Shown one piece after another: positions 1 to 43,502 of a stretch of DNA of 64,000 nucleotides (its first letter is position 1; every line of letters begins with the position of its first letter). Source of the stretch: Lytechinus pictus (taxonomy: Eukaryota); the NCBI RefSeq assembly GCF_037042905.1, contig NC_087250.1:5272001-5336000 (forward strand), written 5' to 3'. Position numbers and translations under genes: made by a program. Under the pieces are notes generated by a model. It searched no databases and was not told the origin of the DNA. It saw only the letters and a list, made by a program, of their open reading frames with translations.

Positions 1-1999
1 GACACCCTTGACATGGCCAATGAATTCAACACATACTTTGTATCTGTAGGAGCCAGATTGTCTTTAAAATTTACCACAGGGGTAGAATGTAGTATTGACG
101 AGTTACTTACCAGTATAACTAAGCCTACCCCTGGTACTAAATTTGTCTTTGAACAGGTTGGGGAACAAAATGTATCAAAAATCATGAAGAAACTGCAAAC
201 ATCCAAAGCAAAGGGATTGGATGGTCTTGATACTGTGCTTCTAAAAGCAGCCTCTCCATTGATTTGTACTCACATCACTTCACTCTTTAATCGCTCACTA
301 GATTCTGGATTTATCCCCGATGAATGGAGACATGCTAAAGTTACTCCCATTCACAAGGGGGGTGAGAAACATGACCCTAATAACTATAGACCTATATCTG
401 TCATCCCTGTGGTTATGAAAATATTCGAAAGACTAGTCCATACCCAGGTTCAAGACTACTTTTTGGAACATAGTTTATTTGCTAGTGAACAGTCTGGATT
501 TCGGAAGAACCACTCAACAAGCACGGTTCTTACCTATTTGAGTGATCAACTGTACAAGCAAATGGATCAGGGTCGACTAACGGGAGTTGTGTTTTTAGAC
601 CTCAAGAAGGCATTTGACTCAGTCGACCATGATCTATTGCTTCACAAACTTACCATGTATGGAATTCTTGGAACGGAGTATAATTGGTTTGAAAACTACC
701 TGAAACATCGTTCGCAGTGTACTTCTGTAAAAACATCTTCCTCTGAATTGAAAAAAAGTACAAACAGGAGTGCCTCAAGGCTCAATCTTGGGGCCCCTCC
801 TGATCACTATAATGGTTAATGACATGCCCAATGTACTTAAGAAATGTAAGATCATGCTCTATGCTGATGATACTGCATTAATGTACAGTGCTAAATGCAC
901 TGAAGAAATTGAAACAGAAATCAATGCTGATCTTCAGAGAATAAGTCAATGGCTAATATTAAATCGACTTACACTAAACCCTGAAAAGTCGAAATTCATG
1001 TTATTTGGTACCTCAAACAAACTGAAAAATGCTAATCCCTTAAATGTGCAAGTCGATAATCATGCCTTTGAAAGAGTTCCAAATTTCAAATACCTGGGCA
1101 CGTGGTTGGACGAGTCACTCACCTGGCAAAAACAAGTTGATGAGATGAGCAAAAAGATTGGCACACGTATTGCCTTACTAAGTAGACTAAGAAAGTACTT
1201 AACTATCGATAGTGCCAAACTCCTAGCTAATGCATTGATAACACCTCATTTTGACTACTGCAGTCCTTCCTGGGCAAACTGTTCACAACATGTGAAGAAT
1301 GTTCTCATTGCCCAGCATAAGAAAATGGCAAGACTTGTCCTTAGATGCAATTTTATGACACCTACTGTTGAGGTATTGTCACAACTGAAATGGGTAAACA
1401 TTGAACAAAGATGGAAATTCAACAAATGTAAATTAATGTATAATCCCCTGAATGGAGAGGGTCCTAAATATATTTCTGATATGTTTACTAAGAGTAATAG
1501 TGTCCACACTCACAGTACGAGGGGTGCCACCTCACAAGGCTTGCTGGTACCTATGGTCAAAACGCAGATGGGGAAAAAAAGCTTTTCTCATGAAGGGTCA
1601 CTCTTGTGGAACGGACTTCCTTCAGCACTTAAAAATGCAGCAACCAAAGAAGCATTCACCACCTTATACTGGAGATTAGTAAAAACTCATGGGGGATTGT
1701 AATTACTTGTTTATGCAGTTGTTAGCTTGCCAGGGAGTGTAAATCATTTGAATAGCAATCTTATGTAATATTATATTTTCATGTAACATGCAGTCACTAT
1801 TGAATCTTCATTACTCATATCATACGCAATATTTCATACGCTGTGTAAAATAAATGTATATAATTGTTAATTAACTAAAATAATATGATGTAGTCGAATG
1901 TATATTGAGAAGTAATAACCACTCTGTAGTATAAGTGTAATGTATCTTTTTTTAAAATAGAAGTAACTTGTATCCGATACGTATACACTCATAGTTCTT

Positions 2000-2049
<50 letters not shown>

Positions 2050-2390
2050 TATGTTAGATTGATTTCTAGATTTACCCTTTCATTGTCACTAAATTGATAA
2101 ATTTATAAGTATGAAAACGTAGAAACCTATAATAATGAAAATACATACTTATTAATTTTTCCTTGTTTTCCTGTCAATTTCCAATACTGGTTCCTTTCTC
2201 AAGAACTCAAATCATTTTCTCTCTTCGTATTACAGTGTAACAATGTTGACTTTTAATGTGTTGTATAATATGTGTTCTTTTGATTGTTTTATGTATATAT
2301 GTATTGTGCAGGGCCCTGGTTGACAACAGTGTCTAAACCACTGATCAGGCTACCCTGGGTAAAGAAGACAAATAAAATAAAAAATAAAAT
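1..2390 (+). mobile_element. CR1/L2-group (Crack/Daphne-like) LINE: ORF2 reverse transcriptase region plus 3' UTR, running off the window start
   Basis: ORFs 13-819 and 770-1702 carry non-LTR RT motifs (KAKGLDG, YRPIS, QSGFR, FLDLKKAFDSVDH, GVPQGSILGP, YADD, YLG). The long AT-rich 3' UTR ends in GCAGGGCCC...GGCTACCCTGGG and an (AAAAT)n-like tail at about 2370-2390. Confidence 0.93.
13..1702 (+). pseudogene. LINE ORF2 RT coding region with a single frameshift in an A7 run at 751-757
   Basis: Removing one A joins ...ELKK to VQTGVPQGSILGP; no other stop or frameshift is seen. Confidence 0.88.
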
Positions 2391-3850
2391 AGTAAAAATG
2401 TTGTCTTAAACATGTTTTCCAACTACATACATCACATATTGGTCATGGAGATAATAAATACTGTAATTTGAAATCCATCATGACTGCCTAAAAGTATTAT
2501 GGTAATTGGAACTTGGGACGTATAATTTTGACAGAATTTGGCTCTGCTTGACCATGTTGACTATAAATATTGCATATATAATTGTGATGTGAGGGTGAAA
2601 TATTTCTAAAACCATGGTTTCTAACGAGGTATATTATATCTTGTGTAATTAAGTTGATAAATTCTGCATTTTGAAATTGAAAATGGCCACCATAGGCCAT
2701 TATCGCCTAAATGGGGACAGAAAATTTTCACAAAATGGCATATAGCGGCCATTTTGAATGTTAAAATACAGTATTTATCACGTAAATTATATAAGATGGA
2801 GCGTTGTGGCCCAGTGGATTAGTCTTCAGACTTTGAAACAGAGGGTCGTGGGTTCGAATCCCAGCCATGGCGTAATGTCCTTCAGCAAGATACTGATCCA
2901 CAGTGTGCTGCACTCAACCCAGGTGAGGTAAATGGGTACCGGTAGGAAGTAATTCCTTAAAAATCTGTGTGCGCTATGAACGCCTAGCTTAGCCGGGTAA
3001 TATAGGAGCGCCTTGAGCACCTAACAAGGTGGATATGTGCGCAATATAAATACCCTATATTATTATATTATATTTTGTTGTAGTTTTCAGACAATATTTC
3101 ACTCATACAACACCATTTAGTCAAGCAAAGCCAAATTTTGTTGAAATCATTTGTTCCCATTTACAATGATACATAATACAGTATATTTCACCTACCTGGC
3201 AGAATAAATGATATATCTTGTTAGAAACTATGCTTTTAGACAATATTTTACTCATGGATCACTATTACGTGCATTTATGGTGCTCACTCCTGTGAATATT
3301 GGTTTCCCCAGTTCGCATTATGCATAATACAGTCAATGTCTATGGCGGCCATTTTGAAAGTCAAAATACAATATTTAACACAAACTACAAACCTGAATGA
3401 TGCATTTCGTTAAAAACTATGTTTTTTAGACAGTATCCAATTACCTTATCACATATTATGCATTTTAGTGCTCACTCTTGTGATTTCTTTGGTCCTTTTT
3501 CTCATTGTACAGGTTTTGGTATCCATTTTTTTAAATATTATCACATACACGTCATGGCATATTATTAACTAAAATATTTCTTTAACAATTGTGTTTTTAG
3601 TCAGTATATATTCCACTCGTTTATCTTAGTAATATGCATTTTGTTGCTCACTCTTGTGAAGTTTTTGGCCACCATTGCCATTTTACATAATACTGTTTGG
3701 GCCAGTTCCGGCTATTTTATGTATGTTCTCATACATGACATAATAAATGATGATTTGCATACAGTAATATGTTCATAGATCACAATTTCTTGCAGTTTAG
3801 TGCTCATTTTTGTGAAAATTAGTTTTCCCTATTCATATTGTACGTAATGA
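2391..3850. repeat. Diverged tandem subrepeat array (GGCCATTTTGAA / TGCTCACTC motifs), probably a DNA-transposon arm remnant
   Basis: Recurring motifs GCGGCCATTTTGAA (about 2745, 3345) and GTGCTCACTC-like (about 3280, 3470, 3645, 3800), similar to subrepeats in 26281-30612. Confidence 0.45.
2798..3072 (+). mobile_element. tRNA-derived SINE with CORE-like body and L2-like tail
   Basis: A box TGGCCCAGTGG, B box GGTTCGAATCC, central TCCTTCAGCAAG...CCCAGGTGAGGTAAATGGGTACC, tail GCGCCTTGAG...GCGCAATATAAAT followed by a TAT-rich end. Confidence 0.88.
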
Positions 3851-4007
3851 TGATGGGTATTTTTTCCCCCGGATATTGGGTCAAATACATGTTTGATGGG
3901 TATTTTTTTTAACGCAACATTTACAAAATATTTAATCCTTTTTTTATCCAAGAGACACGCATTCCCACTTTACCCAATATTGGGTAAACTTTGTGTAAGA
4001 GACTTAC

Positions 4008-4086
4008 CCCTTTGATCGTTGCCTTGCGCCATGAAACTTCTCTACAGGCATACCAGACGAACCCATCAAAGATAGAACAGGTTGAC
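4008..4086 (-). CDS. Putative internal exon B, copy 1 (GQPVLSLMGSSGMPVEKFHGARQRSKG), unknown protein
   Basis: 79 nt, weak acceptor TTATTCAAG, donor GTAAGT. Phase 1 start and phase 2 end, matching exon A on both sides. Open in both copies. Confidence 0.55.
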
Positions 4087-4220
4087 CTTGAATAAGCAAC
4101 GATAATATTTTGTATTTAAAAATGGATGAAAGAAAAGAGAGGGAGAAATACGTCACGGTAAACAAAAAGTAAACTTAAAAGATGAGCTATGGTAGAGATA
4201 TGGTGGAGATATGGTGGATA

Positions 4221-4258
<38 letters not shown>

Positions 4259-4922
4259 CTATGAAAGAGAAAAATGTTTAACCTTTATTTTCACCTTTTT
4301 TATGTTGTTCAGGTTGTAAGAACGGAGCCATCATATCAATGGCTCTGAATATGAATCTAACTAAAATCCCTGTAGAAAAAAAATAAAACATGAGGTAACA
4401 GTAGTCAGACATTATTCGTCCAAAAAAATTAACGCAAATCGTAATCCCGAGTAAATTACCCTAATTTATATGTATATACATAGGCAGGGAGGGAATTCTT
4501 AATATCTGAGAAAGGTCATTTATTCATGTTACGGTATTGTTCGTGAATATATTGCAGATATTTCATGGGAATAGTCGGGACACTGTAAGTACGTCTTAGA
4601 TAAAAATTAATAAATAATACAGATCTATAAGCTTATTGCTAGAGTTACGCGATATTCTTCTCTTCTTCTCTTCTCTTCTCTCTTATTCTTTTTTTATTTC
4701 CTCTTTCGTCTTCTTTTCTTCCCCCTTACCAAATGATTTTTCCCTCTGTTCCATAAGAATGCACTTACGCTTCGTTGGCGATGGCAGAATGATAATTTGC
4801 TCATCCAAAACACTTGTCGTAAATTACGTGCTTCCAGGAGTATTATTGACATGGTTTATGTTTCTTTGTATTTTTGTTTAGGTTTTCTCTTTTACCTAAG
4901 TATTAGATTGTATTATACTCAC

Positions 4923-5158
4923 CATCCGTAAACGCTGTAGACAGTCCAAATCTTTCGAAACATGCTATTATCTGTTCACTAGATTTTGTATTTAGTCTAT
5001 TTACATAGATATCTTTTATGTCCAAAGTCTGAGAGAACTTAAGTGTCGCATTTTTTGGTACACCAAGCTCTAACAAATTTTCAATCAGTTTCGATAAGAT
5101 TTTGTTGATCCGTTGTTTTACTGCTGTAGTCCTAGCGGCATCTTGTGAATCAATGTCC
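4923..5158 (-). CDS. Putative internal exon A, copy 1 (DIDSQDAARTTAVKQRINKILSKLIENLLELGVPKNATLKFSQTLDIKDIYVNRLNTKSSEQIIACFERFGLSTAFTD), unknown helical-looking domain
   Basis: 236 nt, polypyrimidine tract plus CAG acceptor, GTGAGT donor, stop-free in AT-rich DNA. Indels relative to copy 2 preserve the frame. Confidence 0.68.
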
Positions 5159-5334
5159 CTGACAAAAAAAACAAATAAAGAAGCAAATGAAAATCACCAA
5201 TTAATTTCCAAAATAATATTTTATTTTTCTATTTACTAGTATCCTCCTGCAAGACTAATTGGACTTTGATTCATTGTTGGCATAACGGTGTTAAAAGTAT
5301 CCATTGATAATTCGAAAACTGAAAGTGAAAGTGA

Positions 5335-5526
5335 TTCCATTCAATTTAATTCAATTCTTTTATTTCATTTCCATTCAAAACATAATACAGAGTAATATAA
5401 AGCAATACAAATCAAGTACAATTTTACAGAAGGGCATTCTTAATTCGTAAAAAAGATTTAAAAAAAAAACAGTATAATATAGAGCATAAATGGAAATGAG
5501 GGGGATCCACTAAAAAGCAAAGCTGT
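5335..5526 (-). mobile_element. Short LINE 3'-end fragment present only in duplication copy 1
   Basis: (ATTCA)n-like tail and TTTATT on the + strand, GGGGGATCCACTAAAAAGCAAAGC motif. Absent from copy 2 (about 10115). Confidence 0.5.
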
Positions 5527-6876
5527 AATATCTTATTTTTCAATTTCTCCTACACACCCTTTTTAACCCAAAAACACCCATGCGCACACAAACACACACC
5601 CAGATGGGTAAGCTTACACAAAAAAACAAAAAATATCAAAAATGTAATTGAAAGTTTTTGTTTTACTCCAAAATTAGATCGGATGCACGATGTAGCCAAC
5701 ATAAGCTAACACACCTACTGCAATCATCTGTTTGGTTATATCGTATTTTTGTCCATTCCTTTCTTTTTTTAAAGCTGTTATTTATTGAATTCATTTAGTA
5801 CACCAATACAAAATAATTTTTTCGAGTATAAAAATACAAACAAAATACAAATAGTTGTTTCATCATTCAATTGACTTGATCAAAAAGAAATATCTGCAAT
5901 AATGTATACATAAGTAAACATTGTTAACAATAATTCGTCGGCGGTCATCCGAACCGTCGTATCACACATACGACGGTACAAACCTATTTCAGAGAAAATC
6001 GACTTCAAAGTTTACTAAAAATTCTACACATGGTTCCTCAGCCTTACAGCGGGTACATTTCGTAATTCCGAGGATTCGTTATTCCGAAGGTTCGCAATTC
6101 CGAAACACATTTTTTGCCTATACCTCGATGTTCGTTAATCCGAAAACGAAAAAGGGTTCGTCAATCCGTTTTATACCAATTGAGTACACCTTCCTCTACA
6201 AAGCTTGCACATTTTTAGATCCGGTCAAGTCAGTCAGGGAGAATGCGCAGTTCAACGTTGAGGGGGACATATCGAGCATGAGCATGCGCAGTTATCCCAT
6301 GTAAGTACTGTACATGTATATCGAAAAATATGCGGAGCTAGAAGAAAACTATTCCCAGCTATTTGCACGGATGTGCTCTCTTATTGAAATTATACTTTGT
6401 CACATGATCACGAATTGACCAATCGTTTATCTAGAATACTCATGAATATTCACAAGAGGGATAGAAACCCTACTAGAAAGAACCCAGTGTCCTACAGTGT
6501 GCTCACAGTATTCAACAGTATCAGCAGTGTGAATCACGTATGCACATAGCAGTCAGACCGCAGGTCCCTATGCTAATGAGCAAAAAGGCCAGATTCATCC
6601 AAATCATCTCGTGGCTGAATCCTCCTCCTTGCAAAATCTCGTGATTCGTGAGATTTTCTTTCTCTAAGAATTTACCTCTTTTAACCTCAAGTTAAATGGA
6701 ATATTATTGCACCATCAGATAGAGTAAAAGTTACTCTTTCATATTGGTCATTTATTTTGTATACAATATTTTGTTAAAGAAGTAAATTTCTAGCCTGAAA
6801 ATGTGCCTCAAAACTGAATTTTCTTCCTCTGTTTTCTTTTGCAAATTGTGCAAAACCTTTTATTTTGAGCCTCAAT

Positions 6877-7354
6877 AGGTGGTTTCAGACCGCCTCGAAG
6901 TTCGCCAGTTCCAGGTATTCTCTGATCGGGAAATTTACCCCGATCAGAAAATACCAGGTATTTTGGCGGTCTGAAAGCAAACTACGCGTAATATCCCCGA
7001 AAGAAAATACCCGATAAATAGTAGGTACTTGGCGAAATTACGAGAACTTTCGCGGGGATTTTTCCAAGGTCGTGGGTATTTTGGCGGTCTGAAAGCAAAT
7101 TACCGGAACTTTTAGCCCAGCGTGTCGTTGGGTGCGGCGCCGTGCATGGGTTGCTGCTGGGCTAGTGATTTTGAATTTCGCGCCTTGCTGCTTATCAGAC
7201 CATACTGCGCATGCTCGTAACTTCAGGAACTTATCCCGAAGGGTATGTTTCAGGGCGGTGTGAATGCAGGAATAATTAATGGGTATTTTTCAGCCTAAAA
7301 AAGTTCTCGTAATTTAATGGGGATTCTTGTGATCGAGGCGGTTTGAAACCACCT
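6877..7354. mobile_element. MITE with 3-bp TSD (PIF/Harbinger-like)
   Basis: TIRs AGGTGGTTTCAGACCGCCTCGA / TCGAGGCGGTTTGAAACCACCT, with AAT on both flanks. Confidence 0.82.
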
Positions 7355-7431
7355 AATGATATCTATATCACCATAAAGCTGAACTTCTGTACTTTCTCAC
7401 AATGCCACTCTTGATATGCGGCATCTTTTAA

Positions 7432-7717
7432 TCGGGTCAAGATCACACTCTTCCCACCAAGGTACAAGACGAGATTTCTGAAATGTTGTACTTGCGTGAA
7501 ATCTAGAGTTCTGATTGGCTGGATAAGCTTCACAGAACAACAGGCGCGGGGTATTTGAGGAGATTACCACATGGGAAGTGTGACCTTCCCACGAACCCAG
7601 GCACTGGGACTGTTGGAATTTGCCATTGTGTGGTCTTTTTGACCAATCAGAGTGCAGTATTCTTGTTTTCAAACTGCTTTATGTACTTGGCATGTGAAAA
7701 GTGTGATCTTGACCCGA
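7432..7717. mobile_element. MITE flanked by TTAA
   Basis: Perfect TIR TCGGGTCAAGATCACACT / AGTGTGATCTTGACCCGA, with TTAA on both sides. Confidence 0.8.
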
Positions 7718-8338
7718 TTAAACAAATTCTTATTTTGAAACCTATATCATTTCAAAGCATACATATTCAGCTTTATCATGATATAAAAATCATTTGGGCT
7801 CAAATAAAAATAAAGTGCGAAAATAGCAGCTTTTGTCAGGTAAAAATATTTATTTTGTAGCATATTTTAGATCAAAATTTTAACCTATATTACAAAATCT
7901 TTGAATAAATCCAAACACATGACCTGAAAGAATGATTCTTCTTCTTTACAATGGTACCAAATTCATGAAATTCGATGCACAATTAGAGCAGCAATGACCG
8001 AATGAAAAGAGGTGTTTTGGTCCGCATCAAGCTCATTAAATATGCAAAACATCTCAAGTCATGAATATCACTTGGATGAAAGAAGCCACTTTCTTGGGAC
8101 CTGCAGTCTGACTGATAGTCGACCATATGAACACACTGAAAAGAGTAACGCTGTCGATGTGTCCATAATTTGAAAATATCTTCACACCGTTGAATTTCAG
8201 CATCAGATTTTACATAGTCCACTCTGTGCACACAATTGAGACCTGCACGCTGTGTGACACTGTTCTTTCCAAAAGGATTAAAATATATAACCCGTTTTGG
8301 GTAAATTAAGCAAAATTTTAACATGTCATAACATAATA

Positions 8339-8531
8339 CACTCTAAAAAAATATCCAATGCCGGAATATACATGTTTGCTGGGTATTTTTCCCCCTGATA
8401 TTGGGTCAAATGCATGTTTCAAGGGTAAATTTCAACGCAACATTTACAAAATATTTAATCCTTTTTTCGTCCAACAGACACGCATGTTCCCATTTTACCA
8501 ATATTGGGTAAACTTTTTTTTTCTTAGAGTG
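8339..8531. mobile_element. MITE with TA TSD (CACTCTAA...TTAGAGTG)
   Basis: TIRs with TA flanks. A partly deleted counterpart lies at about 3854-3995, and relatives at 47778-47980 and 49645-49847. Confidence 0.72.
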
Positions 8532-8543
8532 TAAGAGACTTAC

Positions 8544-8622
8544 CCCTTTGATCTTTGCCTTGCGCCATGTACCTTCTCTACAGGCATTCCAGGCGAACCG
8601 GTAAGAGATAGAACAGGTTGAC
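8544..8622 (-). CDS. Putative internal exon B, copy 2 (GQPVLSLTGSPGMPVEKVHGARQRSKG)
   Basis: 79 nt with the same splice sites and phases as copy 1; open frame. Confidence 0.55.
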
Positions 8623-9383
8623 CTTGAATAAGCAACGATAATATTTTGTATTTAGAAATGGATCAAAGACAAGAGAGGGAGAAATACGTCACACTGAACA
8701 CAAAGTAAACTTAAAATATGAGCTATGGTGGATATATATATATATATAATCTGTGAAAGAGAAAAATGTTTAACCTTTATTTTCACTTTTTTATGTTGTT
8801 CAGGTAGTAAGAACGGAGCCATCATATCAATGGCTCTGAATATGAATCTAACTCAAATCCCTGTATAACATAAGGTAACAGTAGTCAGACATTATTCGTC
8901 CAAAAAATTAACGCAAATCGTAATCCCGAGTAAATTACCCTAATTTTTATGTATATACATAGGCAGGGAGGGAATTCTTAATATCTGAGAAAGGTAATTT
9001 ATTCATTTTACGGTATTGTTCGTGAATATATTGCAGATAGTTCATGGGAATAGTCGGGACACTGTAAGTACGTCTTAGATAAAAATTAATAAATAATACA
9101 GATCTATAAGCTTATTGCTAGAGTTACGCGATTTTCTCTCTTCTTTTTTTTCCTTATTTTCTCTTTCTTCTTCTTTTCTTTTCCCTTACCAAATGATTTT
9201 TCCCTCTGTTCCATAAAAATGCACTTACGCTTCTTTAGCGATGGCAAAATGACAATTTGCTCATCCAAAACACTTGTCGTAAATTACGTGCTTCCATGAG
9301 TATTATTGACATGGTTTATGTTTCTTTGTATCTTTGTTAAAGGTTTTCTCTTTTACCTAAGTATTAAATTGTATTATACTCAC

Positions 9384-9616
9384 CATCCGTAAACGTTGTA
9401 GACAGTCCAAAGCTTTCCAGACATGCTATTATCTGTTTTGTATTTAGACGATTTGCAAAGATATCTTTTATGTCCAAAGTCTGTAGGAACTTAAGTGTCA
9501 CATTTGTTGGTACACCAAGCACTAACAAATCTTCAATTAGTTTCGATGAGATGTTGCTGATCCATTTTTTTACTATTCTATTCTTTTCAGTATCTTGTGA
9601 ATCAATGTTCAGGAAA
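9384..9616 (-). CDS. Putative internal exon A, copy 2 (FLNIDSQDTEKNRIVKKWISNISSKLIEDLLVLGVPTNVTLKFLQTLDIKDIFANRLNTKQIIACLESFGLSTTFTD)
   Basis: 233 nt, TTTTTTTCAG acceptor, GTGAGT donor, open frame; +6 and -9 nt relative to copy 1. Confidence 0.68.
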
Positions 9617-9761
9617 CTGAAAAAAATAAATAAAGAAGCAAATGAAAATCACCAAGTAATTTCCAAAATAATATTTTTTTTTTCTATTTACTAGTATCCT
9701 CTTGCAAGACCAATTGGACTTTGATTCATTGTTGACATAATGGTGTTAAAAGTGTTCATTG

Positions 9762-10081
9762 CAGGGGCGGAAATCTCCCCCAAAAGGTAAAGGGGGACAA
9801 AGGGCTCGAAAATTTGACAAGCAAAATAAAAGGTAATCACCCAAAATTTTAGGTCAATCCGTCGAAACTAAATTTGACAAGCAAAACAAAAAATTTAAAG
9901 GGTTATTATCCCAAAAGTAATGTCATTTCGTCCTAAAATATCGATTTTGAATGACAAATTTCTTACCATCATAAAAGACCACAAATAGTAGGGGGGACAT
10001 TTGATATTGTGTCCCCCTACTATTTTGAGTAGGGGGAGGGACACGTCCCTCCGGTCCCCCCCCCTGGGATTTCCGCCCATG
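9762..10081. mobile_element. hAT-like MITE with 8-bp TSD GTTCATTG
   Basis: TIR CAGGGGCGGAAATC / GATTTCCGCCCATG, exact 8-bp TSD, and an empty site in copy 1 (about 5300). Confidence 0.88.
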
Positions 10082-10650
10082 GTTCATTGCTATATGCAAA
10101 ATGAAAGTGAAAGTGATTATAATGTCTTTTCAATTTCTCCTACACACCCTTTTAAACACACGCGTGCGCGCGCGCGCGCGCACACACACACACACACCCA
10201 GATGGGTGAGCTTACACAAAACAAAAACAAAAAAAATCAAAAATGTGATTGAAAGTTTTTGTTTTACTACAAAATGAGATCGGATGCACGATGTAGCCAA
10301 CATAAGGTAACACACCTACTGCAAGCATATGTTTGATTATATCGCATTTTTGTCCATTCCTTTCTTTTTTTTAAGCTGTTATTTATTGAATTCATTTAGC
10401 ACACCAATACAATATAATTTTTTCGAGTAACAAAATACAAATAAATACAAACAGTTGCTTAGCCATTCGGTTGACTTGATCAAATAAGAAATATCTACAA
10501 TAATGTATACATAAGTAAACATTGTTAACAATAATTCGTCGGCGGTCATCCGAACCGTCATATCACACATACAACGGTGCAAACCCATGACTGAGGAAAT
10601 CGACTTCAAAGTTTACTATATTTTTCATATTTGGTTCCCCAGCCTTACAA

Positions 10651-11390
10651 CGGTTACACTTCGTAATTCCGAGGATTCGTTATTCCGAAATACGTAAATT
10701 GCCTATACCTCGATGTTTGTTAATCCGAAAATGAAAAAAGTGTTCGTCAATCCGAACATTGGTGACGTTATTCCGAAGGTTCGTTATTCCGAAAACGAAA
10801 TAAGGTTCGTAAGTCCGAAAACGAAGTAAGGTTCGTTGTTCCAAAGGTTCGTTAATCTGAAAAAATAAGGTTCCTTATTCCGAAGGTTAGTTAATCCGAA
10901 AAATGAAATAATCGGTGGCAAAGCAGGAAAAATCGGAAGGGTAAGCGTTTGGGGTTACACGTCGTAATTCCAAAGGTTTTTTATTTCGAAGGTTCGTAAT
11001 TCCGAAACAAGTAAATTGCCTATACCGCGATGTTCGTCAATCCGAAAACTAAACAGGGTTCGTTAATCGGAACATTTGAGGCGCTATTTCGAAGGTTTGT
11101 TATTCCGAAGGTTCGATAATATAACCCGAAAACAAAATAAGGTTCGTTGTTCCGAAGATTCGTTAATCCGAAAAAGAAATAAGGTTCGTTGTTCCGAAGG
11201 TTCGTTCATCCGAAAATAAAATAAGGTTCGTTGTTCCGGAGATTCATTAATCCGAAAAAGAAATAAGGTTCGTTGTTCCGAAGGTTAGTTAATCCAAAAA
11301 CGAAATAGGGTTTGTTGTTCCGAAGGTTCGTTAATCCGAAAACGAAATAAGGTTCTTTATTCCGAAGGTTCGTTAATCCGAAAAATGAAA
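10651..11390 (+). repeat. Minisatellite-like array (CCGAAGGTTCGTTAATCCGAAAACGAAATAAGGTTCG), arm of a foldback MITE family
   Basis: Many tandem copies. The same unit occurs at about 6055-6165, 16040-16170, 16460-16630, 18780-19010, 19186-19721 and 20062-20434. Confidence 0.85.
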
Positions 11391-11459
11391 ACCTGGAAAG
11401 CAGAGGAAGGGCAAGTGTGGTGGTGGGTGAAACACCGTTGCTGTTTAATCATCATGACG

Positions 11460-12100
11460 ATGGGAAGGTAAGGGCGGCCGAACAAATTTTCGTTAGGGGG
11501 GCAAATCCAAAAATGACACTCGTACGTCAAGACGGGCACTGTGGTGATATATTCACCATGAGACTATCATCTGCGTGAAGTCATTGTGTGTTTTATAAAG
11601 TAGAGAAAAGCCTTTTTGAATTGACTTCTGATTATGGAAAGATGTATATTTAGGCTTTTATTTCGCGAGAGAGTATAATGAGCGAGGGCTTTGGAAAACA
11701 TTCAAAGCTGAAGTTGTAAAACTCGTTTTGGGGGTCAATTACAATTAAAATGGCATTATTGCGAGGTGTTGCGAGCGTGAATCACAATCTTAAGCTTTAG
11801 GGCATTTTAATAAGAAATGAAAAGAAAAAAAATTCGAGCAAGTTTCTGCTATCACTAAAAAGATGTTCATCTAGCCATGGACCCTATGGTCCATGAACTA
11901 CTAGCGCAAAGCTCGAGCTTAAATATACTGACCAAAAAAGGAACCTGTTAAAGACTGCATTTATATTAGTGATCTCTTTAGGAGACATATTTCACCAATC
12001 GAATAGTTCGAGTGCGAAGCGCGAGCTGAAAAATTGTAATATTCCAGCCTGAAAATTTATCTGAAATGTATACTTTAAAAAGAGTATTTGTCCCAAGCCC
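11460..12100. repeat. Dispersed non-autonomous element family with GCGCGAAGCGCGAGC subrepeats (also about 16640-17290, 18340-18770, 48340-48850, 51555-52860, 55680-56804)
   Basis: Recurring GCG(C)GAAGCGCGAGC motif; 11600-12090 is colinear with 16740-17290. Confidence 0.65.
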
Positions 12101-12687
12101 GAGATACGGCACATATCCCTCTTGCAAATGAAAAATACAGACTTGAATACAGACGTTATCGGCGAAAACGAGAGAACTAGCTTGCTTAGTTCGCTCGCGC
12201 CCTGTATGGATTCTGTGGAGGCTCAGACAGGATCCAGTCGTAAATCTTCTACTGGACCGAAAATTTCAAGAAGAAGAGAATGGAGCAGAAGAGAAAATAT
12301 GAAAGTCGTGGAATATTATCATGAGAGCAGACCTGACAAGGAAAGAGGCTACATCAAGAGAATGTACAAGATCTGGCAATAGAAGGGTCTTTTCTAAACA
12401 TCAGAGCAGAGACTTGCAGATCAGGTACGTGTGATCCAAAGAAATGAGATACTGACTGAAATTGAGAGGGAAGGGATCAAAAGAAATGTGAATGAACCTG
12501 TGAGAGATGAGCAGGGGGAAGTACTCAGACCGGGAAGAGAAGAAGAGCAGACAGAAGCAACAGCTCCACTTTGAAGAGGATTGGGTACAACCACTGACAG
12601 ATAGGAAGAAGAGCAGGAAGAGACAAGATTATATTATTGTAGATAAAAGAGGAGAGGGTTAATGCAAGAAAAGCACCCCACCCCCCC

Positions 12688-13207
12688 CCCGGGGGGGGGG
12701 GCACTCAGTATATAATGCATAGTGGGTATGTGCCGCGGAGGGGACCCCCATTTTTACACTCAAATTTCCGTTCCGAGGCATAGCATTTTTGTCTTACTGA
12801 GAAAAAGAACAAAAAATGCCGCTCCAGAGCATAGCATTTTCTTCTTCTCGAGAAAAAAGAAGAAATAAATCCGCTCCAGGGCTTTGCATATTTTCCGTTA
12901 CGCCGTTCCGGTCGCAATTTTGGTGAAAAGCGGCCGCAGCTCGCTGTCCGACCATCGCCTCTGCGCTAGCGCGCCCGTCAGTCGTGCCGTCGGGCTAGCG
13001 GCATGTACGTTCCATAGGGATGCATACGCACTCGCACGCAGGCGACCCGTTCCAAGGACCCCCGTTTTCACAAACATTTGTAGTTCCGAAGCCCGTTCCG
13101 AAGACCCTCCCTTTTTACAATGAGCCCGCTCCAAGGCCCCCGTTTTTTGTCTCGCCCGCGGCACACCCCTACCACTTTTTTGGTCGAGTGCCCCCCCCCC
13201 CCCCGGG
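12688..13207. mobile_element. GC-rich non-autonomous TIR element inserted in the R4/Dong-like element
   Basis: TIR CCCGGGGGGGGGGGCACTC / GAGTGCCCCCCCCCCCCCGGG with further subterminal inverted similarity (GTGCCGCG / CGCGGCAC). Confidence 0.8.
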
Positions 13208-13891
13208 CCCATCCCTCCTTATCTGAAGAGAATACCAATGGAGAAACTACTGATATAAACTCAGAAAGTCAACGATGTTATGAAGTTTATCAGCTCAGAC
13301 AGTATTGAGGATACTAGTGATCTCATATATGCTGGAGCAGTTCTGGTAACAGAGAGGTTAGGTGTAAGAAAACAGGAGAGCAAAAGGAATCACTGTCTAC
13401 CAACATGAAAAAGAAGGCTTGATAGTCGGATAAAGGGATGAAGGATAGACCTATCAAGACTGACAGAGATAAACCTTGGCAACGCAGAAATCAACAATTT
13501 TAAGTACCTTGAAGAGAAGTACAGTAACAGAAGGAAAGAAAATGAAGACCGTCGTGGAGGAACTAAAACACAACGAATAACAAGCACTACAGCAAAAGTA
13601 AAGAGGTACACCGATCGAGTGTCACAGTATAGACAAATTCCTTGTTTGAGAACATCCACAAGAGGTTCTACCAAGAAATTGATGGCAAGATAAAAGACGA
13701 AGTTCCACCACCAGATCAAGCTGCAACAATTGCCTTCTGGAGCAACATTTGGAGCCAAACACATAATCGCACCAAGAAGCTAGGTGGTTGAAAACAACGA
13801 ATTAAGAGGAATGTGCCACAATCGTTGCACAAGATGATCTGACAATCAATAAATTCAAGCTAGAAACGAACATTTGGAAAATGGCACAATG

Positions 13892-14739
13892 GAAAGCTGC
13901 CGGTCCAGACGGTGTGCAAACTTTCTGGATCAAAAGGTTTACAAATCTTCATGAAAGGCTGAGCTTGCAAATGAACGAAATTGTCGTGAATGGTAACCCC
14001 CCTGAATGGATGACAAAAGGAAGAACGGTTGTCATCCCAAATGATCCTACCAAAGGCAACATTCCATCACACTGCCGTCAAATTACCTGCTTTCCGATTC
14101 TCTGAAAGTTACTGACTGGCATAATATCACAAGAAATATGTCAACACCTGGACGATCAAGAGATACTTCCATGGGCATAGAAGGGATGTAGAAAAGGAAG
14201 TAGAGGAACAAAAGAACAAAAGAACAAAAGAACAACTATGCATCGACAAAGGCATTATGAAATACATCAAGAAAAGAAAAACAAACCTCGGAATGGCATG
14301 GATTGACTACAAGAAAGCTGCCGGTCCAGACGGTGTGCAAACTTTCTGGATCAAAAGGTTTACAAATCTTCATGAAAGGCTGAGCTTGCAAATGAACGAA
14401 ATTGTCGTGAATGGTAACCCCCCTGAATGGATGACAAAAGGAAGAACGGTTGTCATCCCAAATGATCCTACCAAAGGCAACATTCCATCATACTGCCGTC
14501 CAATTACCTGCTTTCCGATTCTCTGAAAGTTACTGACTGGCATAATATCACAAGAAATATGTCAACACCTGGACGATCAAGAGATACTTCCATGGGCATA
14601 GAAGGGATGTAGAAAAGGAAGTAGAGGAACAAAAGAACAAAAGAACAAAAGAACAACTATGCATCGACAAAGGCATTATGAAATACATCAAGAAAAGAAA
14701 AACAAACCTCGGAATGGCATGGATTGACTACAAGAAAGC
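13892..14739 (+). repeat. 421-bp tandem duplication inside the R4/Dong-like RT
   Basis: 13892-14312 is repeated at 14313-14733, with GAAAGC at all three junction points. Confidence 0.93.
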
Positions 14740-17332
14740 ACACGACATGGTTCCGCACTCCTGGATCATCGAGTATAATCGGGTAGCAGACATCAGAAGG
14801 CTCCTCATTACAAGTATAACGAGATGGAGAACTAAGTTGGAAAGTGATGGCGAAGTGCTTAGAGAGGTTGCTATTTGTGATGGCAATAACACCATTAGCT
14901 AATGTGCTCAGAACATCCAGGCTAGGATATGAGTTCAAGAGCAAAGCAAAAATCAACCATCTGTTATACATGGACGATTTGAAGCTGTTTGGTAAGACAG
15001 AAATTGATTTAGAGTCTCTCATCAACACAGTGTGGATCTTCAGCGAAGACGTCGGTATGCAGTTTGGGTTGGATAAATGTGCAATGATTACTTAAGCCAG
15101 CCAATGACAACATCTTCCAAATGCCGAACAGAAAAGAGATCAGATCAATCAAAGACGGTGGTAGCTATAAATATCTCGGAATACTATAGGCAGATCAGTT
15201 GAAACATAAAGAAATGGAGAAGAAGATTGAGGCAGAGTATATCAGGCGAATTCTGAAGGTGCTCAAATCCAAACTAAATGCTGGAAACATGAAGAAGGCT
15301 GTTAACACTTGGGCAGTAGCCCTAGTGAGATATGCCGCTGGCATAGTTGAATGGAACAAGCTTGAACTCGAACAAATTACCGAAGAGCCAAAGTTGAAAA
15401 GGAGCACACATCTCCCTCAGGTAGAATGTGTCATGACAAAGACGAAACGGTAACTCATCTGGTGGGTGAATGCAGCAAAATGGCACAGACTGAGTATAAA
15501 GGAAGGCACGACAGAGTAGCAGCTGCAGTTCACTGGGGTCTGGCCAAGAGGTACCATTTATCCCATGCAGAAAAATGGTACGAACATCGGGCAAAGCCTG
15601 TAGTAGAGAACGATGGTGTACAACTCTTACATGTCTTATGGGATTTTAATGTCCGGACAGACAAGATTGTTGAAGCTAGACGACCAGACATCGTTCTCTT
15701 AAGAAGAGGGGAAGGAACGTCTCATCATAGCTTATTATGATCGTCATTATTATTATTCTAATTACAAGCAGAAGCTCTTATTAAAAATGACATCAGCTCC
15801 GATACAAATCCTATTATCTGGTGGTTACTCGCACGCGACCAAAACACTTAATCCCCTGGGTCCTTAAACCATTTGCTTAGGCAGCAATTGTTCAGATAAA
15901 ATCGAAATTAAGCCTATGCTTGATCCGGGTGCCTATTCTTCATGTTAACAATGCAATACATGCTTTGGCCACAACACACACATTTATCATCGTTCGTTAT
16001 TCTTATTATTGCATAATATCCTATTATCTTGCAAAGACAACACCGTTCTTTCATTTTCGGAAATACGAACCTTATTCAATTTTCGGATAAACGAACCTCA
16101 TTTCGTTTTCGGATTAACGAACCATCGGAATTACGAACCTCATTTCGTTTTCAGATTAACGAACCTTATTTGAATTGAAGGCCCCTTTAATACTCATCAT
16201 CTCTACTCACCGACTCAAGCCAGCATCTCCTCATCCATCCTACTACTCAAGCTACTTTTTCAACTCATCAATCTCTTCTGGTTTACAGTCCTTTTCAGGA
16301 CTACATTCAAGAAAGAATACTTTACTCTCAAATCTCCACTTTCTCGCCTATCCAATTCCCTTTTCTTCTTCTACCCACTATATCTACTTCACTCCACATG
16401 GCGTACCGTAAACCACATCAGCGACTGTACATACCACCATGCAAACCTTCAAACAACATCCGAACCTCATTTCGTTTTCGGACTAACGAACCTTCGGAAT
16501 TACGAACCTCATTTCGTTTTCGGATTAACGAAAATTCGGAACTACGAACCTTATTTCGTTTTCGGATTAATGAAACTTCGGAATTACGAACCTTTGGCAA
16601 TACGAACATACGAATTATGAATGTATTTGGCTTCGAGGAGTGGGGGGGGGGGGCTCTGTTGCTGTTCAGTTCTTATGAGGATTTGGAGGCAAAAAGAAAG
16701 CTGGGAGGAGGAGCAAAGTAGAGCAAATGAGAACGAATCCTTTTTAAGTGATTTATGATTATGGTAAAATGTCTATATATGCTTCAATTTTCGCGAGAGA
16801 GTGTTACGAGCGGGCGGTTTTGAAAAAAAACCCTCAAAGTTGAAGTTGTAAAATCTGATTTTGGTTAGTTACTTGTAAATTAATGTTAAAAGGGCATCCT
16901 TGGGAGGTGTTGCGAGCGCGAATCGTAAGCTCAAACTTTTTGACATTTCAATAAGAAATGAAAATAAAACATTCTGAGTAGTTTTTGCTATCATTAAAAA
17001 AATGTGCATCTAACTCAAAAATTAACACGAGCGCGAAGTGCGAGCTGAAATATAATGACCAGAAAAGGAAGGTCTGTAAAGGGCTGCGTTTTTACATCGA
17101 ATAATGCAAGTGCTAAGCGCGAGCCCAAAATATATTCCAGCCTGAAAACTGGAGATTTTAAGCCTTATTATAACCAGAAACGGTGAGTACCTTGCTAAAC
17201 AATAACTGATAACATTAACCCCACCCCACCCCCCAAAACAAAAAAAAAAAAAAAATCATTTTAAAATGTATACTTTCAAAGGGGGTATTTTCATTTAAAA
17301 AAACGTCACATTTCATTTTAGGTGCGTACATA

Positions 17333-18319
17333 CAATGCGAATTAAAAAAAGGTTTACACTCAGAAAAAATCTTGTAAAATTATATGTTTATAATATCCTG
17401 AAGATCTTTCCATATTTTAACATTGGTACAGATCCATTTTAGCAAATGACGATATAACTGTCGAAGAATATTTCCGCTTGAGTGAGCACCACTTACTTTT
17501 GAAAAGTTAGTGAAAAATGATTTGTGCAGAACTCTGAAATAGTTATGCGAATAAAAGTAGACCTTAATCATGAAGAACATGTAGAATTTAGCTAGTAAAT
17601 TGATTTGATGATATCTTATACCTATTTCAAATCGTTTCCTTGCCCAAAACACTCCGAAGAGTGCACTGCGCCACACCCCACTCCCCCACACCGAGGCCAT
17701 CGTGGCGATATTTGCTTTACACTGAGCTGTGATTTACATGAAATGGTTTAGGTCTCATTTTCATTGTAAATCATTGTCAAGCTTAGGAAAAATGTGGAGA
17801 AACAATTATTAATTGAAAAATGCAATGTAAATGATACAAACTTAGTGAAAAAATGCTGGAGATGTCTGATACATGAATAAGCTTGTGTTCAGATCCAGTT
17901 ATGTCCTCAGATCCAGTTGGCATAAAAAAAAAAAGGGGTAAAGGTAGTGCTTTAATACCAAGTGTTGAAATTTCAATTTGGGTGGCAAATTCGTTACAAA
18001 ATGCTTGAATGTATCGGTTTTATTTCAATTGACTAAAAGTGGAAGGGAAATCTATGATAAATGTTCGCAGCGTAAGTTTGATTTCGCCCTTTCCCTTTTA
18101 CACAGCAAGAAAACAAGCATTTCTGCGCAAACATATTTCTGCGAGCTTTACAAAAGTGGATAATGTTCACTCAAGTGTAACATTCTGTCAAAACTTATAC
18201 TTTCATTCGATAGATGAGACCCAAACCTAAGATTATATGTGAAAAAATTACCCACATGTTGTATATTTTTTAATTCCCAGAGCTTTTTCAAAGTGTAAAC
18301 TTTTTTTTGATACGCACTG
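17333..18319. mobile_element. Tc1/mariner-like non-autonomous element, TA TSD
   Basis: TIR CA(A/G)TGCG.AT.AAAAAAA.GTTTACAC / GTGTAAAC...GATACGCACTG with TA flanks; second copy at 39001-39603. Confidence 0.85.
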
Positions 18320-19185
18320 TATACTGATGTGGATCGAGCTTTCGCCAATAAGGGGGGGGGGGGGGGGGGGGGGGCTTCATTTCCCATTTTTCCCGATCGG
18401 CTGATTTATAATAAACAAGATAAACAAGATTGTATCTCATAATCCCTGACTGAATATTGCAAACGTGAGAAGCCAAGCTAAATCTTTATCGAAATTTTAG
18501 TTTTTTTTTCCTAAAAATTGAACATTCTGAGCAATGTTTGTGATTATGCAGAAGACGCCTATGGAACTAAGTAATTACTTTGAGCGCGAAGTGCGTGCTG
18601 AAATTTTAGATTAACTGTCATGAAGAGGGGTTTTAAGTAGTTTGTTAGAAGTCATTATAGAAGTAGGCTATGCAAATTAATGAAAGTACGAGCACACAGC
18701 GCTAGCTGATAAGTTTTGACGATCAGACCTGAAAAGAATTATTTTGAGAACTTAATGGAACACATGAATATAATATTTTTAAACGAAACCTTATTTAATT
18801 TCGGACTAAGGAACCTTCGGATTAACGAACTTAATTTCGTTTTAGGACTAACGAACCTTCGGAATTACGAATCTTATTTCGTTTTAGGACTAGCGAACCT
18901 TCGATATTACGAACGTTCGGAATTATGAACCTTCGGAATAACGAACCTCCGAAATATTCATGATATTCGAACCTTCGGAATAACGAAGCGTCGGAATTTA
19001 AAATGTATGCGGTTTATTACGGTTACTTACGGTTTATTCCATTCTAAAAATTAATTGGTTGGAAAGACCATGTCAATTGCTTGACATTGGTATCCTTATT
19101 TTTACACAGAACTTAGGATCAGAGGAAGAAAATGTCGCAAAAGAACTACTTGCTTGTAAATACGGTTTCAAGAGCGACTTAGATT

Positions 19186-19721
19186 GGTTACACTTCGTAA
19201 TTCCGAAGGTTCGTAATTCCAAAGGTTCTTTATTCCGAAGGTTCGTCATTCCGAAACACGTAAATTGCCTATACCTCGATGTACGTTAATCCGAAAACTT
19301 AAAAGGGTTCGTTAATCCGAAAATTTGTGGCGTTATACCGAAGGTCCGTTATTCCGAAAACGAAATAAGGTTCGTTGTTCCGAAGGTTCGATAATCCGAA
19401 AACGAAATAAGGTTCGATGTTCCGAAGGTTCGTTAGTCCGAAAACAAAGTGAGGTTCGTAATTCCGAAGGTTCGTTAATCCGAAAACGAAATAAGGTTCG
19501 TTGTTCTGAAGGTTCGTTAGTCCGAAAACGAAATAAGGTTCGTTAATCATTACGTTTTCGGACTAACGAACTTTCGGAATTACGAACCTCATTTCGTTTT
19601 CGGATTAAGGAACCTTCAGAATTACGAATCTCACTTTGTTTTCGGACTAACGAACCTTCGGAATTACGAACCTCATTTTGTTTTCAAACTAATGAACCTC
19701 CGGAATTACGAATACATGCGC
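19186..19721. mobile_element. Foldback MITE built from GAAGGTTCG subrepeats
   Basis: Subrepeats run forward to about 19548 and are then reverse-complemented; ends TTCGTAATTCCG / CGGAATTACGAA. Confidence 0.78.
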
Positions 19722-20061
19722 TTAGATTTTCCCTGTACAAAAATGCCATAGGGGAAAGCGATACAACATTTTGACTAACCGCGATTCCAGTTCACGCGAT
19801 CAGTCAAAACGTCGTATGGCTTTTCACGTGGAAAGTCAATGCAGTGACAAGTGCCGATACGACGGTTTGGTTGATCGCTCGCGTTGAATTCGCGGTCAGT
19901 CAACATGGTCAAAACGTCGCATCGCACTGTTACAGTACATGTTTTCATTGGGATTTGAGCATTTTACTAAAATTTGCATAACTTCGCCGTGAAAGTCCCC
20001 TCATATCTCAAAAACTAAAATCAATTTGCTGCATAGAAATTTAGCTATGGATAGCTACACT

Positions 20062-20434
20062 TACACTTCGTAATTCCGAAGGTTCGTCATTCCGAAGATT
20101 CGATAATCCGAAAACGAAATAAGGTTCGATGTTCCGAAGGTTCGTTAGTCCGAAAACGAAATAAGCTTCGTTGTTCTGAAGGTTCGTTAAACCGAAAACG
20201 AGGTACGTAAGTTCGAAAACGAAATAAGGTTCGTTAATCATTTAGTTTTTAGACTAAAAAACCTTCGGAATTACGAACCTCATTTCGTTTTCGGATTAAC
20301 GAACCTTCGGAATTACGAACCTCATTTCTTTTTCGGACTAACGAACCTTCGGAATTACGAACCTTCGGAAATACGAACCATCGGGATAACGAACCTTCGA
20401 AATAACGCAGCTTCGGAATTACGAATGTATGCGG
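20062..20434. mobile_element. Second foldback MITE of the GAAGGTTCG family
   Basis: Same architecture, with the orientation switch at about 20240. Confidence 0.78.
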
Positions 20435-20594
20435 AATAAAATAGGAATTGTACTTTCATTTTCTGCAAAAATCTTTTTTGACAAAAATTGACTGATTAAC
20501 GCCGACGAATTATTTGTATGTTATATTACATTGATTTATAATATGAAACTCATATTACATTGTGTACCACCTTGTACTGAATAGATTAAATTAA

Positions 20595-42001: not shown

Positions 42002-43502
42002 TGAAAAATATAAGGAGATACAACATCCAAGTTTGTTTTGCACATCAATGAATTATCACCAAGTTGAATAAATTCCATAATGACAGATTGATGAATGAAC
42101 AAATCAATTGATAAATGAATAATAAATAATTAATTCGATTAAAATAATGATATAAATGGATGAGCCCATGTGTTCACTCTGATTGTTTTCAGAGTTGACT
42201 GAAACACGGGACGATACTAATAAGTCTTGAAGAGAGCGGCATCGTCTAAATGCGAAAAGGGGCGGTTCTGGAAATATTCCATTTGTCACTTCAGATTGGT
42301 GTCTTTCTTCTTATAATGTAAGGGGTTTTCCCGAGGAATTTCTTTAGCCTTGTTGATGGCTTTGCTCACTGAATGAGGATTGTAATTACGTTTCTGGAGA
42401 TGTTCTTGCAGATCTGCGATACTAGATTCACAGTTGGCTTCTTTGGAACAAATGCGCCTTATTCGGATTGTCTGGCTATAAGGAATGCTACTGAAAACAT
42501 GGTGTGGGTGAGATGAATAAGAATGAAGAAGATAAGCATGGGTGTCCGTCGGTTTGGAGTGGAGAGAAGTTTGTAGAATGTTCTCTTTTATGTAAAGTAG
42601 AACATCAAGGAAGGAAACTTGAGAGTTAGACGTTTCAAACGTGAATTTGATTGTTGGATGGAATGAATTGGCAGCTTGGATAAATTGGTCAAGAGACTCC
42701 CTGTTTCCAGACCAGATAAAATTAATATCGTCAATGTATCTACACCAGGATGATCTGTAAGGCTGTTGTGGGACTGAGGAGAGGAATTTCTCTTCTAGGT
42801 CTGCCATAAAGATATTGGCATAAGAGGGTGCAACTGGAGTGCCCACGGCCGTTCCTTGGTTCTGAATGTAGAATTCCCCTGCAAACTGAAAGTTGTTCAA
42901 CTTCAGAATTAGTTCAAGTAATCGAACCATATCACAAGTAGGGGGATCTTTCGATCTCCATTTTTCAAGAGCTTTCTTACAGGCTTGGATACCATCTGCA
43001 TGGGGAATGTTGGTATACAGGGATTTGACGTCGGCTGAGACCAAGAATATCCCATTAGGAATTAGGCCCTCTGAGTTTATTTTGGAGATATGTTTCAGAA
43101 AGTGTGTTGTGTTTTGTATGAAAGACTTAGTATGTTGTACCAATGGATGCAATACTGTGTCGAGAAAGCGAGATATTTGAACAGTAGGGCAAGAACATCC
43201 GGAAACAATTGGTCTTCCTGGATTGCCCAATCAATTTATGTATTTTGGGCAAAAAGTACATTTGTGGGCATTCCGATTTGCTAGGGATTAGTAATTGCTT
43301 GATGTCTTTTCGGACATTTATGTCATTTACTACTTTTTTTTCACTTGATTCAAGTGCTCATTGTTAGGATCACTCTCAGTTTTTCTATATGTCTCCGTGT
43401 TCAATTGTCTATGGCCTTCAGAAAGATAGCTCTGTTTAGATTGAAATACCACTGCTGACCCTTTGTCAGCTCGCTTGATAATAACATTCTTGTTATCTTT
43501 AA

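Follow-up and report, generated by a model that had tools for sequence, protein, structure and literature searches.

Tandem duplication of a predicted coding exon pair related to the N-terminus of NACHT-kinase proteins in Lytechinus pictus

Results

Exon structure of the locus

We analysed a window of 64,000 nucleotides (nt) from contig NC_087250.1 of the sea urchin Lytechinus pictus, and all positions given here are window coordinates. The window contains no N, is AT-rich (GC 32-45% in 2-kb steps) and is crowded with repeats. On its minus strand lie two copies of a two-exon module, each pair encoding about 105 residues: module 2, upstream, is made of exons A2 and B2, and module 1, downstream, of exons A1 and B1 (Table 1). 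A first reading of the letters alone, referred to hereafter as the original prediction, had proposed four exons with AG/GT boundaries and matching phases that form one open frame, and all of this was as claimed. Each exon is preceded by AG and followed by GT(A/G)AGT, so that AG/GT is present at eight of eight borders. Exon A2 is preceded by a T-rich tract and CAG and followed by GTGAGT, B2 has an AAG/G acceptor and a GTAAGT donor, and A1 has a TCAG acceptor and a GTGAGT donor. Exon A carries one orphan base at its entry and one at its exit, exon B two at each. Exons A and B together measure 312 nt in module 2 (233 + 79) or 315 nt in module 1 (236 + 79), enter and leave in phase 2, and read in the order A2-B2-A1-B1 as a single open frame with zero stops. 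Because of this phase and these lengths, either copy could be joined to its neighbours without breaking the frame.

The locus has the features of a tandem exon (cassette) duplication, namely adjacent homologous exons on one strand, symmetric phase, a length that is a multiple of three and retained splice sites. By blastn, 3851-5306 matched 8377-9761 with 86.5% identity over 1475 columns, and 5537-6168 matched 10127-10754 with 86.4% identity over 647 columns. A tblastn search of the 64-kb window found each exon exactly twice, which confirms a real tandem duplication with two copies only within the window; weak matches of exon A at 42.4-43.1 kb lie inside a reverse-transcriptase open reading frame (ORF) and were rejected as chance. 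Exon A2 has two additional codons at its 5' end and lacks three codons of A1, the two length differences that had been reported before. Phase symmetry, open frame and duplication of the proposed module thus stood. The acceptor sites of A2 and A1, however, are at non-homologous positions, set apart by a 6-nt shift plus a 3-nt gap.

Table 1. Features of the duplicated locus and mismatches per aligned site between its two copies.
Feature	Position	Strand	Mismatches	Remarks
Duplicated segment, copy 2	8377-10754	-		From about 1.1 kb upstream of exon A to about 165 nt beyond exon B, with both exons and the intron; blastn, MAFFT
Duplicated segment, copy 1	3851-6168	-		blastn, MAFFT
Exon A2	9384-9616	-		233 nt; phase 2 in, phase 1 out; upstream copy, conserved; predicted to encode the helical N-terminal unit
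Exon B2	8544-8622	-		79 nt; phase 1 in, phase 2 out; predicted to encode a Pro/Gly/Ser/Arg-rich linker
Exon A1	4923-5158	-		236 nt; downstream copy of exon A, faster-changing
Exon B1	4008-4086	-		79 nt; downstream copy of the linker exon, borders same as B2
Exon A, between copies			33/231 (14.3%)
Exon B, between copies			9/79 (11.4%)	3 residue changes
Upstream far part	10754-10130		64/612 (10.5%)
Near upstream	9761-9617		11/144 (7.6%)
Intron part a	9383-9141		19/242 (7.9%)
Intron part b	9140-8760		9/381 (2.4%)
Intron part c	8759-8623		10/137 (7.3%)
Downstream	8543-8377		17/154 (11.0%)
All alignable non-exon DNA			130/1670 (7.8%)
Hot patch, 5' end of exon A	9548-9616 (partner about 5096-5158)	-	17/67	A-rich
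Low-divergence tract, A-B intron	8760-9140 (partner about 4270-4650)		9/381	Against 121/1289 in other non-exon DNA, p = 1e-6
Spacer	6169-8376			2.2 kb, dispersed repeats; not found beside the other copy, occurs once in the window
Non-aligning stretch upstream of A2	9821-10121 (partner 5319-5537)			About 50% mismatch in sliding window

Homologues of the exon pair

The two exon A peptides were aligned and the resulting profile was searched with HMMER against 1.84 billion representative proteins, giving three matches. One of these, the uncharacterized protein LOC121417768 of Lytechinus variegatus (1087 residues; P0002 hereafter), was matched in a single stretch, profile positions 1-77 on residues 6-76, with an E-value of 6.9e-9. 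The uncharacterized protein LOC135154507 of L. pictus (P0004) is 91% identical to it. In tblastn, residues 6-80 of P0002 aligned to A2 with 49% identity (E = 3e-12) and residues 5-80 to A1 with 38% identity (E = 2e-8).

Exon B was absent from the query, and it aligned to residues 80-101 or so of P0002, directly after the exon A match. The match of B2 had a permutation P of 0.001 against composition shuffles and was the top one among 217 stop-free windows of 25 residues in the 1 kb downstream of A2; for B1 the permutation P was 0.0008. The module aligned end to end with P0002 and P0004, and in the four-way alignment the A-B junction fell on a conserved Gly. As exon B is collinear with the homologue, the splice from A to B is supported by the homologue rather than by transcripts of this genome. 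Blocks conserved with the Lytechinus proteins are IDSQ, SKLI.(D/N)L..LGVP.N, E.(F/V)GL and DG.P.LSL, and A1 retains three codons (SSE) that are present in the outgroup and absent from A2. The strength of this match and its collinear continuation into exon B bear out the proposal that the four exons are coding sequence which an ORF track would miss.

Pfam assigned NACHT (178-336), NLRC4_HD (542-582) and Pkinase (812-1076) to P0002, and nothing to residues 1-105. By homology, the module is predicted to be the N-terminal part of an NLR-like STAND protein that ends in a kinase. The guess that it belongs to an immune-type protein was therefore right in spirit, since its homologues bear NACHT, NLRC4_HD and protein-kinase domains. 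The family with this N-terminal region looks tiny: the HMMER scan, a search with the region 1-105 of P0002 and a search with the four-sequence profile yielded just P0002 and P0004, to which the window adds two unannotated copies.

P0002 begins MSRQY-FGNIDSQ, and exon A in the window begins at the Phe with one orphan T. The residue before this conserved Phe is Tyr or Asp in the Lytechinus proteins, and the codons of both end in T or C; together with the orphan T of A2, this fits a tiny first coding exon upstream.

Other searches did not extend the family. In Pfam at E up to 10, A2 matched zero families, A1 matched only mTERF (E = 0.091, below cut-off) and exon B matched nothing. None of 131 candidates scored in a word-indexed protein search with A1, and the ESM Atlas gave no usable match for A1 or for residues 1-105 of P0002. 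No Rfam family was found over 3000-11500 and no tRNA over 1-20000. Two long proteins, P0001 (1501 residues) and P0003 (1140 residues), which by eye contain ankyrin-like repeats, matched profile positions 21-46 (LI..LL.LG...N) repeatedly, in as many as 14 short stretches, the lowest E being 4e-27. Membership of the ankyrin family was rejected, as the exons contain no Ank family in Pfam at E up to 10 and the E-values of P0001 and P0003 are inflated by summing over repeats; we read these matches as repeat-summed noise, a weak resemblance to the helix-loop motif of ankyrin added up many times.

Divergence along the two copies

Mismatches were counted by region on a global MAFFT alignment of both copies (Table 1). 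As had been predicted, divergence is not uniform across the duplication, either in a sliding window or in the region counts. Exon A is more diverged than the non-exon total (p = 0.002) and the near flanks (p = 0.013), but not more than the upstream part (p = 0.15). An excess running through all of exon A was not found: most of it is in the hot patch that forms the first 67 aligned nt, the remaining 164 nt holding 16 mismatches (9.8%). The patch coincides with a 6-residue gap in the Lytechinus proteins.

The A-B intron contains the opposite extreme. The original prediction had compared 8881-9130 with its partner (4401-4651 in our alignment), and of the 250 aligned columns in this segment 4 are indeed mismatches and 1 is a gap. 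It belongs to a low-divergence tract of about 380 nt that holds an identical run of 92 nt starting at 9132; the 99.9th percentile of such runs in shuffles was 81. From its divergence and this perfect run, 8760-9140 is probably a gene-conversion tract, which fits one of the two readings that had been offered for the locus. The contrast of 14% in exon A against 2% in the intron is correct in both figures, but the lower one comes from the least diverged part of the duplication and does not represent non-exon DNA as a whole. Together, the conversion tract and the variable, indel-prone patch of exon A create the impression of diverging exons and conserved introns.

Selection and asymmetry between the copies

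Of 75 aligned codons in exon A, 24 differ (31 nt), 22 of them by replacement and 2 in a purely synonymous way, and these counts agree with those made by eye. The replacement excess, which had been called strong, shrinks when codons with multiple hits are partitioned. By the Nei-Gojobori method, exon A has 25.3 nonsynonymous differences on 174.7 sites and 5.7 synonymous differences on 50.3 sites, which gives a ratio of nonsynonymous to synonymous rates (dN/dS, or omega) of 1.32 (one-sided Fisher p = 0.42). Relocating the 9-nt gap moved this value to 1.33-1.45. Omega was 0.38 for exon B and 0.94 for A and B combined, so that dN/dS was not reliably above 1, an outcome that the original prediction had itself named as counting against it. 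In a neutral simulation with the local substitution spectrum, two or fewer purely synonymous codons arose with P = 0.033, a marginal value that is uncorrected and post hoc for a case chosen as extreme.

Compared with non-exon divergence, nonsynonymous sites of A and B showed an excess (p = 0.011) that fell to p = 0.095 once the converted tract was left out; for exon A on its own the figures were 25/175 against 130/1670 (p = 0.006). Synonymous sites were also raised (10/69 against 130/1670, p = 0.065). The simplest reading of this is that the duplication is older than the introns suggest and that the introns were partly homogenised afterwards. As a point of method, counting codons by eye overstated the replacement excess, and one conversion tract can mimic the pattern of conserved introns and fast exons.

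With the Lytechinus sequence as outgroup, the changes between the modules could be polarised. In the aligned columns, 38 residues are identical in all sequences, 33 are common to both modules against the outgroup, and 5 differ three ways. Sixteen changes are polarisable, 13 unique to module 1 (A1/B1) and 3 to module 2 (binomial p = 0.021). In addition, three codons kept by module 1 and the outgroup were lost by module 2. Amino-acid change in these alignments is thus asymmetric between the copies, module 2 being conserved and module 1 free to vary, a result new to this analysis, which fits relaxed constraint and would also fit selection on module 1.

Predicted fold of the exon A domain

AlphaFold2 modelled A2, from a two-sequence alignment, as four helices (residues 4-32, 37-46, 49-53 and 59-68) with a mean predicted local distance difference test score (pLDDT) of 65.2, and modelled residues 1-108 of P0002, from four sequences, with the same four helices at a pLDDT of 53.6. 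The exon B part of the P0002 model scored below 50 and reads as a disordered linker. The exon A unit is accordingly predicted, at low confidence, to be a unit of about 65 residues with four helices.

The original prediction had speculated that exon A encodes a death-fold bundle. The Death, CARD, DED and PYD profiles of Pfam did not match the exon A peptides at E up to 10. With the exon A2 model, Foldseek against the PDB gave nothing at E <= 0.001, and with VIA-align the best Z among 48,161 chains was 5.5, a background value for helical models; no death-fold chain was present among the rows listed by either program. In a profile search of PDB sequences the best match was a methyltransferase at E = 0.15. 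The death-fold idea accordingly drew no support from Pfam, PDB sequences, Foldseek or VIA-align, and the models are too weak to exclude it.

Discussion

Interpretation of the locus

We consider it probable that two internal coding exons of an NLR-like sea-urchin gene were duplicated in tandem to give this locus. The encoded module would consist of a four-helix unit of about 65 residues followed by a disordered linker rich in Pro, Gly, Ser and Arg, and corresponds to the N-terminal region of the L. variegatus and L. pictus proteins, which are about 1090 residues long and contain, further on, a NACHT NTPase, a helical domain of the NLRC4 type and a protein kinase. With symmetric phase 2, an upstream exon could join either copy, and either exon B could join A1 or the next downstream exon with the frame intact, so that one or two copies of the domain could be included. 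The exons would still be in use, as part of a NACHT-kinase gene whose remaining exons would lie beyond the start of the window, and the domain would act as an interaction or adaptor module. After the duplication, module 2 stayed near the ancestral sequence and module 1 took most of the replacements, at a rate not distinguishable from neutral drift, and the intron tract of about 380 nt would later have been made alike again by gene conversion. The uneven divergence is best explained by the conversion tract in the intron, the variable patch in exon A and an asymmetric, possibly relaxed, evolution of the downstream copy.

Several observations weigh against this interpretation. We did not find a first exon with an ATG: an ATG followed by four codons, 2 nt and GT, or a longer ATG-containing exon ending in GTRAG, was sought in 13000-9617 and 8543-5159, and the best candidate matched 2 of the 4 residues of MSRQ. 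Nor were NACHT or kinase exons found in the window, where tblastn with P0002 at E up to 10 returned the four exons and chance matches; one of these, at 45.2 kb, was examined and is not NACHT. Downstream of B1 there are only 4 kb before the window edge, partly occupied by a reverse transcriptase of the LINE (long interspersed nuclear element) type on the opposite strand. Transcripts were sought by placing three raw RNA runs of one organism (about 6% of each was read) and one contig set on 3001-10700. That organism is perhaps not the species of the window, as its reads fell on dispersed repeats only. With that limit, read depth on the four exons and on most of the unique sequence was nil or close to it; reads from both strands covered the spacer and the other repetitive stretches. 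Among indexed sequencing runs, which contained just 0.03-0.14 of the words sampled from the stretch, none is recorded as RNA. The open frame itself is weak evidence, because its chance of surviving 31 neutral substitutions is P = 0.30. Copies that have gone out of use would likewise give a pairwise dN/dS near 1, and the fold models are poor (pLDDT 65 and 54).

Much of this would equally be expected if one or both modules were unused leftovers of a partial gene duplication, with module 1 drifting neutrally towards a pseudo-exon, and partial gene duplications are common in large, fast-turning NLR families. The combined dN/dS of 0.94, the 13 of 16 polarised changes that fall in module 1, the lack of NACHT and kinase exons in the remaining 4 kb, the lack of RNA depth on the exons (in three runs of an organism that is perhaps not the species of the window) and surroundings full of transposons and satellite DNA all agree with it. 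Both copies nevertheless retain all four splice sites and an open frame, a weak objection given the P of 0.30 under neutrality. The two indels in exon A have lengths divisible by three, but only 2 of the 16 in the rest of the duplication do, and module 2 has few changes of its own; these two objections are not strong either. We regard relic exons as the doubtful alternative. Diversifying selection on the repeated domain, mainly on module 1, with introns kept alike by conversion as in immune and recognition proteins, appears unlikely to us. It would account for the excess in exon A over non-exon DNA, both at all sites and at nonsynonymous sites, for the scarcity of purely synonymous changes (2 of 24 changed codons), for the asymmetry between the modules and for the NLR-like nature of the homologues. 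The same excess loses its force when the converted tract is excluded or when the upstream part is taken for comparison. Omega is indistinguishable from 1 in exon A and low in exon B, the rise at synonymous sites speaks for a duplication of greater age whose introns were partly homogenised, and the case was selected for looking extreme.

Two further explanations concern the nature of the sequence. Sea-urchin genomes are very heterozygous, and diverged haplotypes of a single locus might have been set in tandem by the assembly, as just two adjacent copies in the same orientation would allow. The window has no N, however, 2.2 kb of other DNA lies between the copies, the flanks of each copy are unique, a divergence of 8-14% with 18 indels and different inserts is high for alleles, and the sharp low-divergence tract fits exchange between paralogues; such an artefact is quite improbable. 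Chance open frames in duplicated non-coding DNA can be all but dismissed. ORFs of this length are expected (those of at least 94 residues number about 16 per shuffled window, mean 16.3, and 69 were observed, many in transposons) and Pfam finds nothing in the exons, but the homologue found in 1.84 billion proteins (E = 6.9e-9), collinear into the second exon, contradicts this reading.

The tandem duplication of coding exons, which we prefer, also admits a bolder version. The modules might serve an echinoid-specific NACHT-kinase receptor as functional and selectable cassettes at its N-terminus, used in tandem or as alternatives, the downstream one diversifying under positive selection with introns kept alike by conversion. 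We think this improbable. If true, it would describe a route to varying the signalling or recognition end of an NLR-like protein by means of an orphan helical domain without a known fold family.

Relation to known systems

Tandem exon duplication yields repeated or alternative cassettes, and the window resembles it in its homologous neighbouring exons, symmetric phase, length divisible by three and preserved splice sites; it differs in that the duplicated unit is an exon pair with its intron. The N-terminal region is seen here to consist of a phase-symmetric exon pair whose duplication preserves the frame. Snake-venom PLA2 genes and sea-urchin Sp185/333 are families in which exons diverge faster than introns. 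Like them, the window has an exon A about twice as diverged as the surrounding non-coding DNA; unlike them, its omega is not significantly above 1, and the contrast is owed largely to one conversion-like intron tract and one hot patch.

The closest known relatives are LOC121417768 and LOC135154507, whose N-terminus (residues 1 to about 105) shares with the window modules a collinear helical unit and linker, at 49% (A2) and 38% (A1) identity over about 80 residues. These proteins have a single copy followed by NACHT, NLRC4_HD and kinase, whereas the window has two copies and no NACHT or kinase, and the window copies carry 6 extra residues in the first helix. The N-terminal region of the two proteins has no Pfam family and no described function.

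According to PMC2858798, the sea urchin has a large NLR expansion with a Death-NACHT-LRR architecture and is a reference case for expanded innate-immune receptors, in which the death-fold domains serve homotypic interaction. The module is like these domains (PMC2858798) in being a small helical domain ahead of a NACHT NTPase in an echinoderm, and by this analogy it could possibly serve homotypic interaction too. It differs from them in having four modelled helices, at low confidence, rather than six, and no profile match, and its homologues end in a kinase whereas the Death-NACHT-LRR proteins described in the same source end in LRR. The word kinase is absent from the main text of PMC2858798. 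A NACHT-kinase architecture with an unclassified N-terminal domain was not met in a narrow literature search limited to titles, abstracts and parts of PMC2858798, which does not show that the architecture is undescribed.

Spacer, repeats and other features of the window

The spacer between the two copies is probably an insertion that postdates the duplication. It is covered deeply, on both strands, by RNA reads and contigs from another data set. Within it, many RNA reads and one contig of that kind join 6873 directly to 7355; as the reads skip 6874-7354, most copies of this repeat family appear to be without these 481 nt, pointing to a nested insertion in the spacer. Upstream of exon A the copies carry different repeat-derived inserts at 9821-10121 and 5319-5537, with repeat-type reads on 9683-10196 and 5314-5570.

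A 42-nt satellite, with units containing TTCGTTAATCCGAAAACGAAATAAGG, forms arrays at 10776-11488, 16056-16635, 18748-19757 and 20041-20455 and is also present at 6059-6168 and 10644-10753, where a unit-like piece makes up the upstream edge of both duplicated copies. On this account the satellite is a possible mediator of the duplication. A perfect 10-bp hairpin (ACCGTCGTAT..ATACGACGGT) was seen by eye on the minus strand at about 5957-5985 (partner about 10558-10586); it starts a run of 62 nt that is identical between the copies, in a region with repeat-type read cover. Microsatellites of the (TA)n type recur at 4212-4265 and 8724-8758, inside the A-B intron of both copies with lengths that differ by 44 nt, and also at 41.7, 45.6, 55.3 and 63.5 kb.

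Of the 51 ORFs of at least 100 residues, 49 were scanned with Pfam, two satellite-encoded ORFs at 16174-16718 being left out, and no host-gene domains were found in the 49. RVT_1 reverse transcriptase was present in ORFs at 1-816 and 752-1699 on the plus strand (E = 1.7e-19 and 3.7e-17) and at 42289-43230 on the minus strand (E = 5.5e-11). A weak GIY-YIG match (E = 1.3e-4) was found at 57619-58371 on the plus strand. The minus-strand ORF at 53320-53778 matched Pfam Pentapeptide repeats (E = 2.2e-6) and is probably the translation of a simple repeat rather than a gene. Finally, a direct repeat of 300 nt, 13892-14191 against 14313-14612, is 99% identical with its copies 421 nt apart; it lies within long plus-strand ORFs with repeated peptide blocks and perhaps reflects a recent duplication inside a mobile element.

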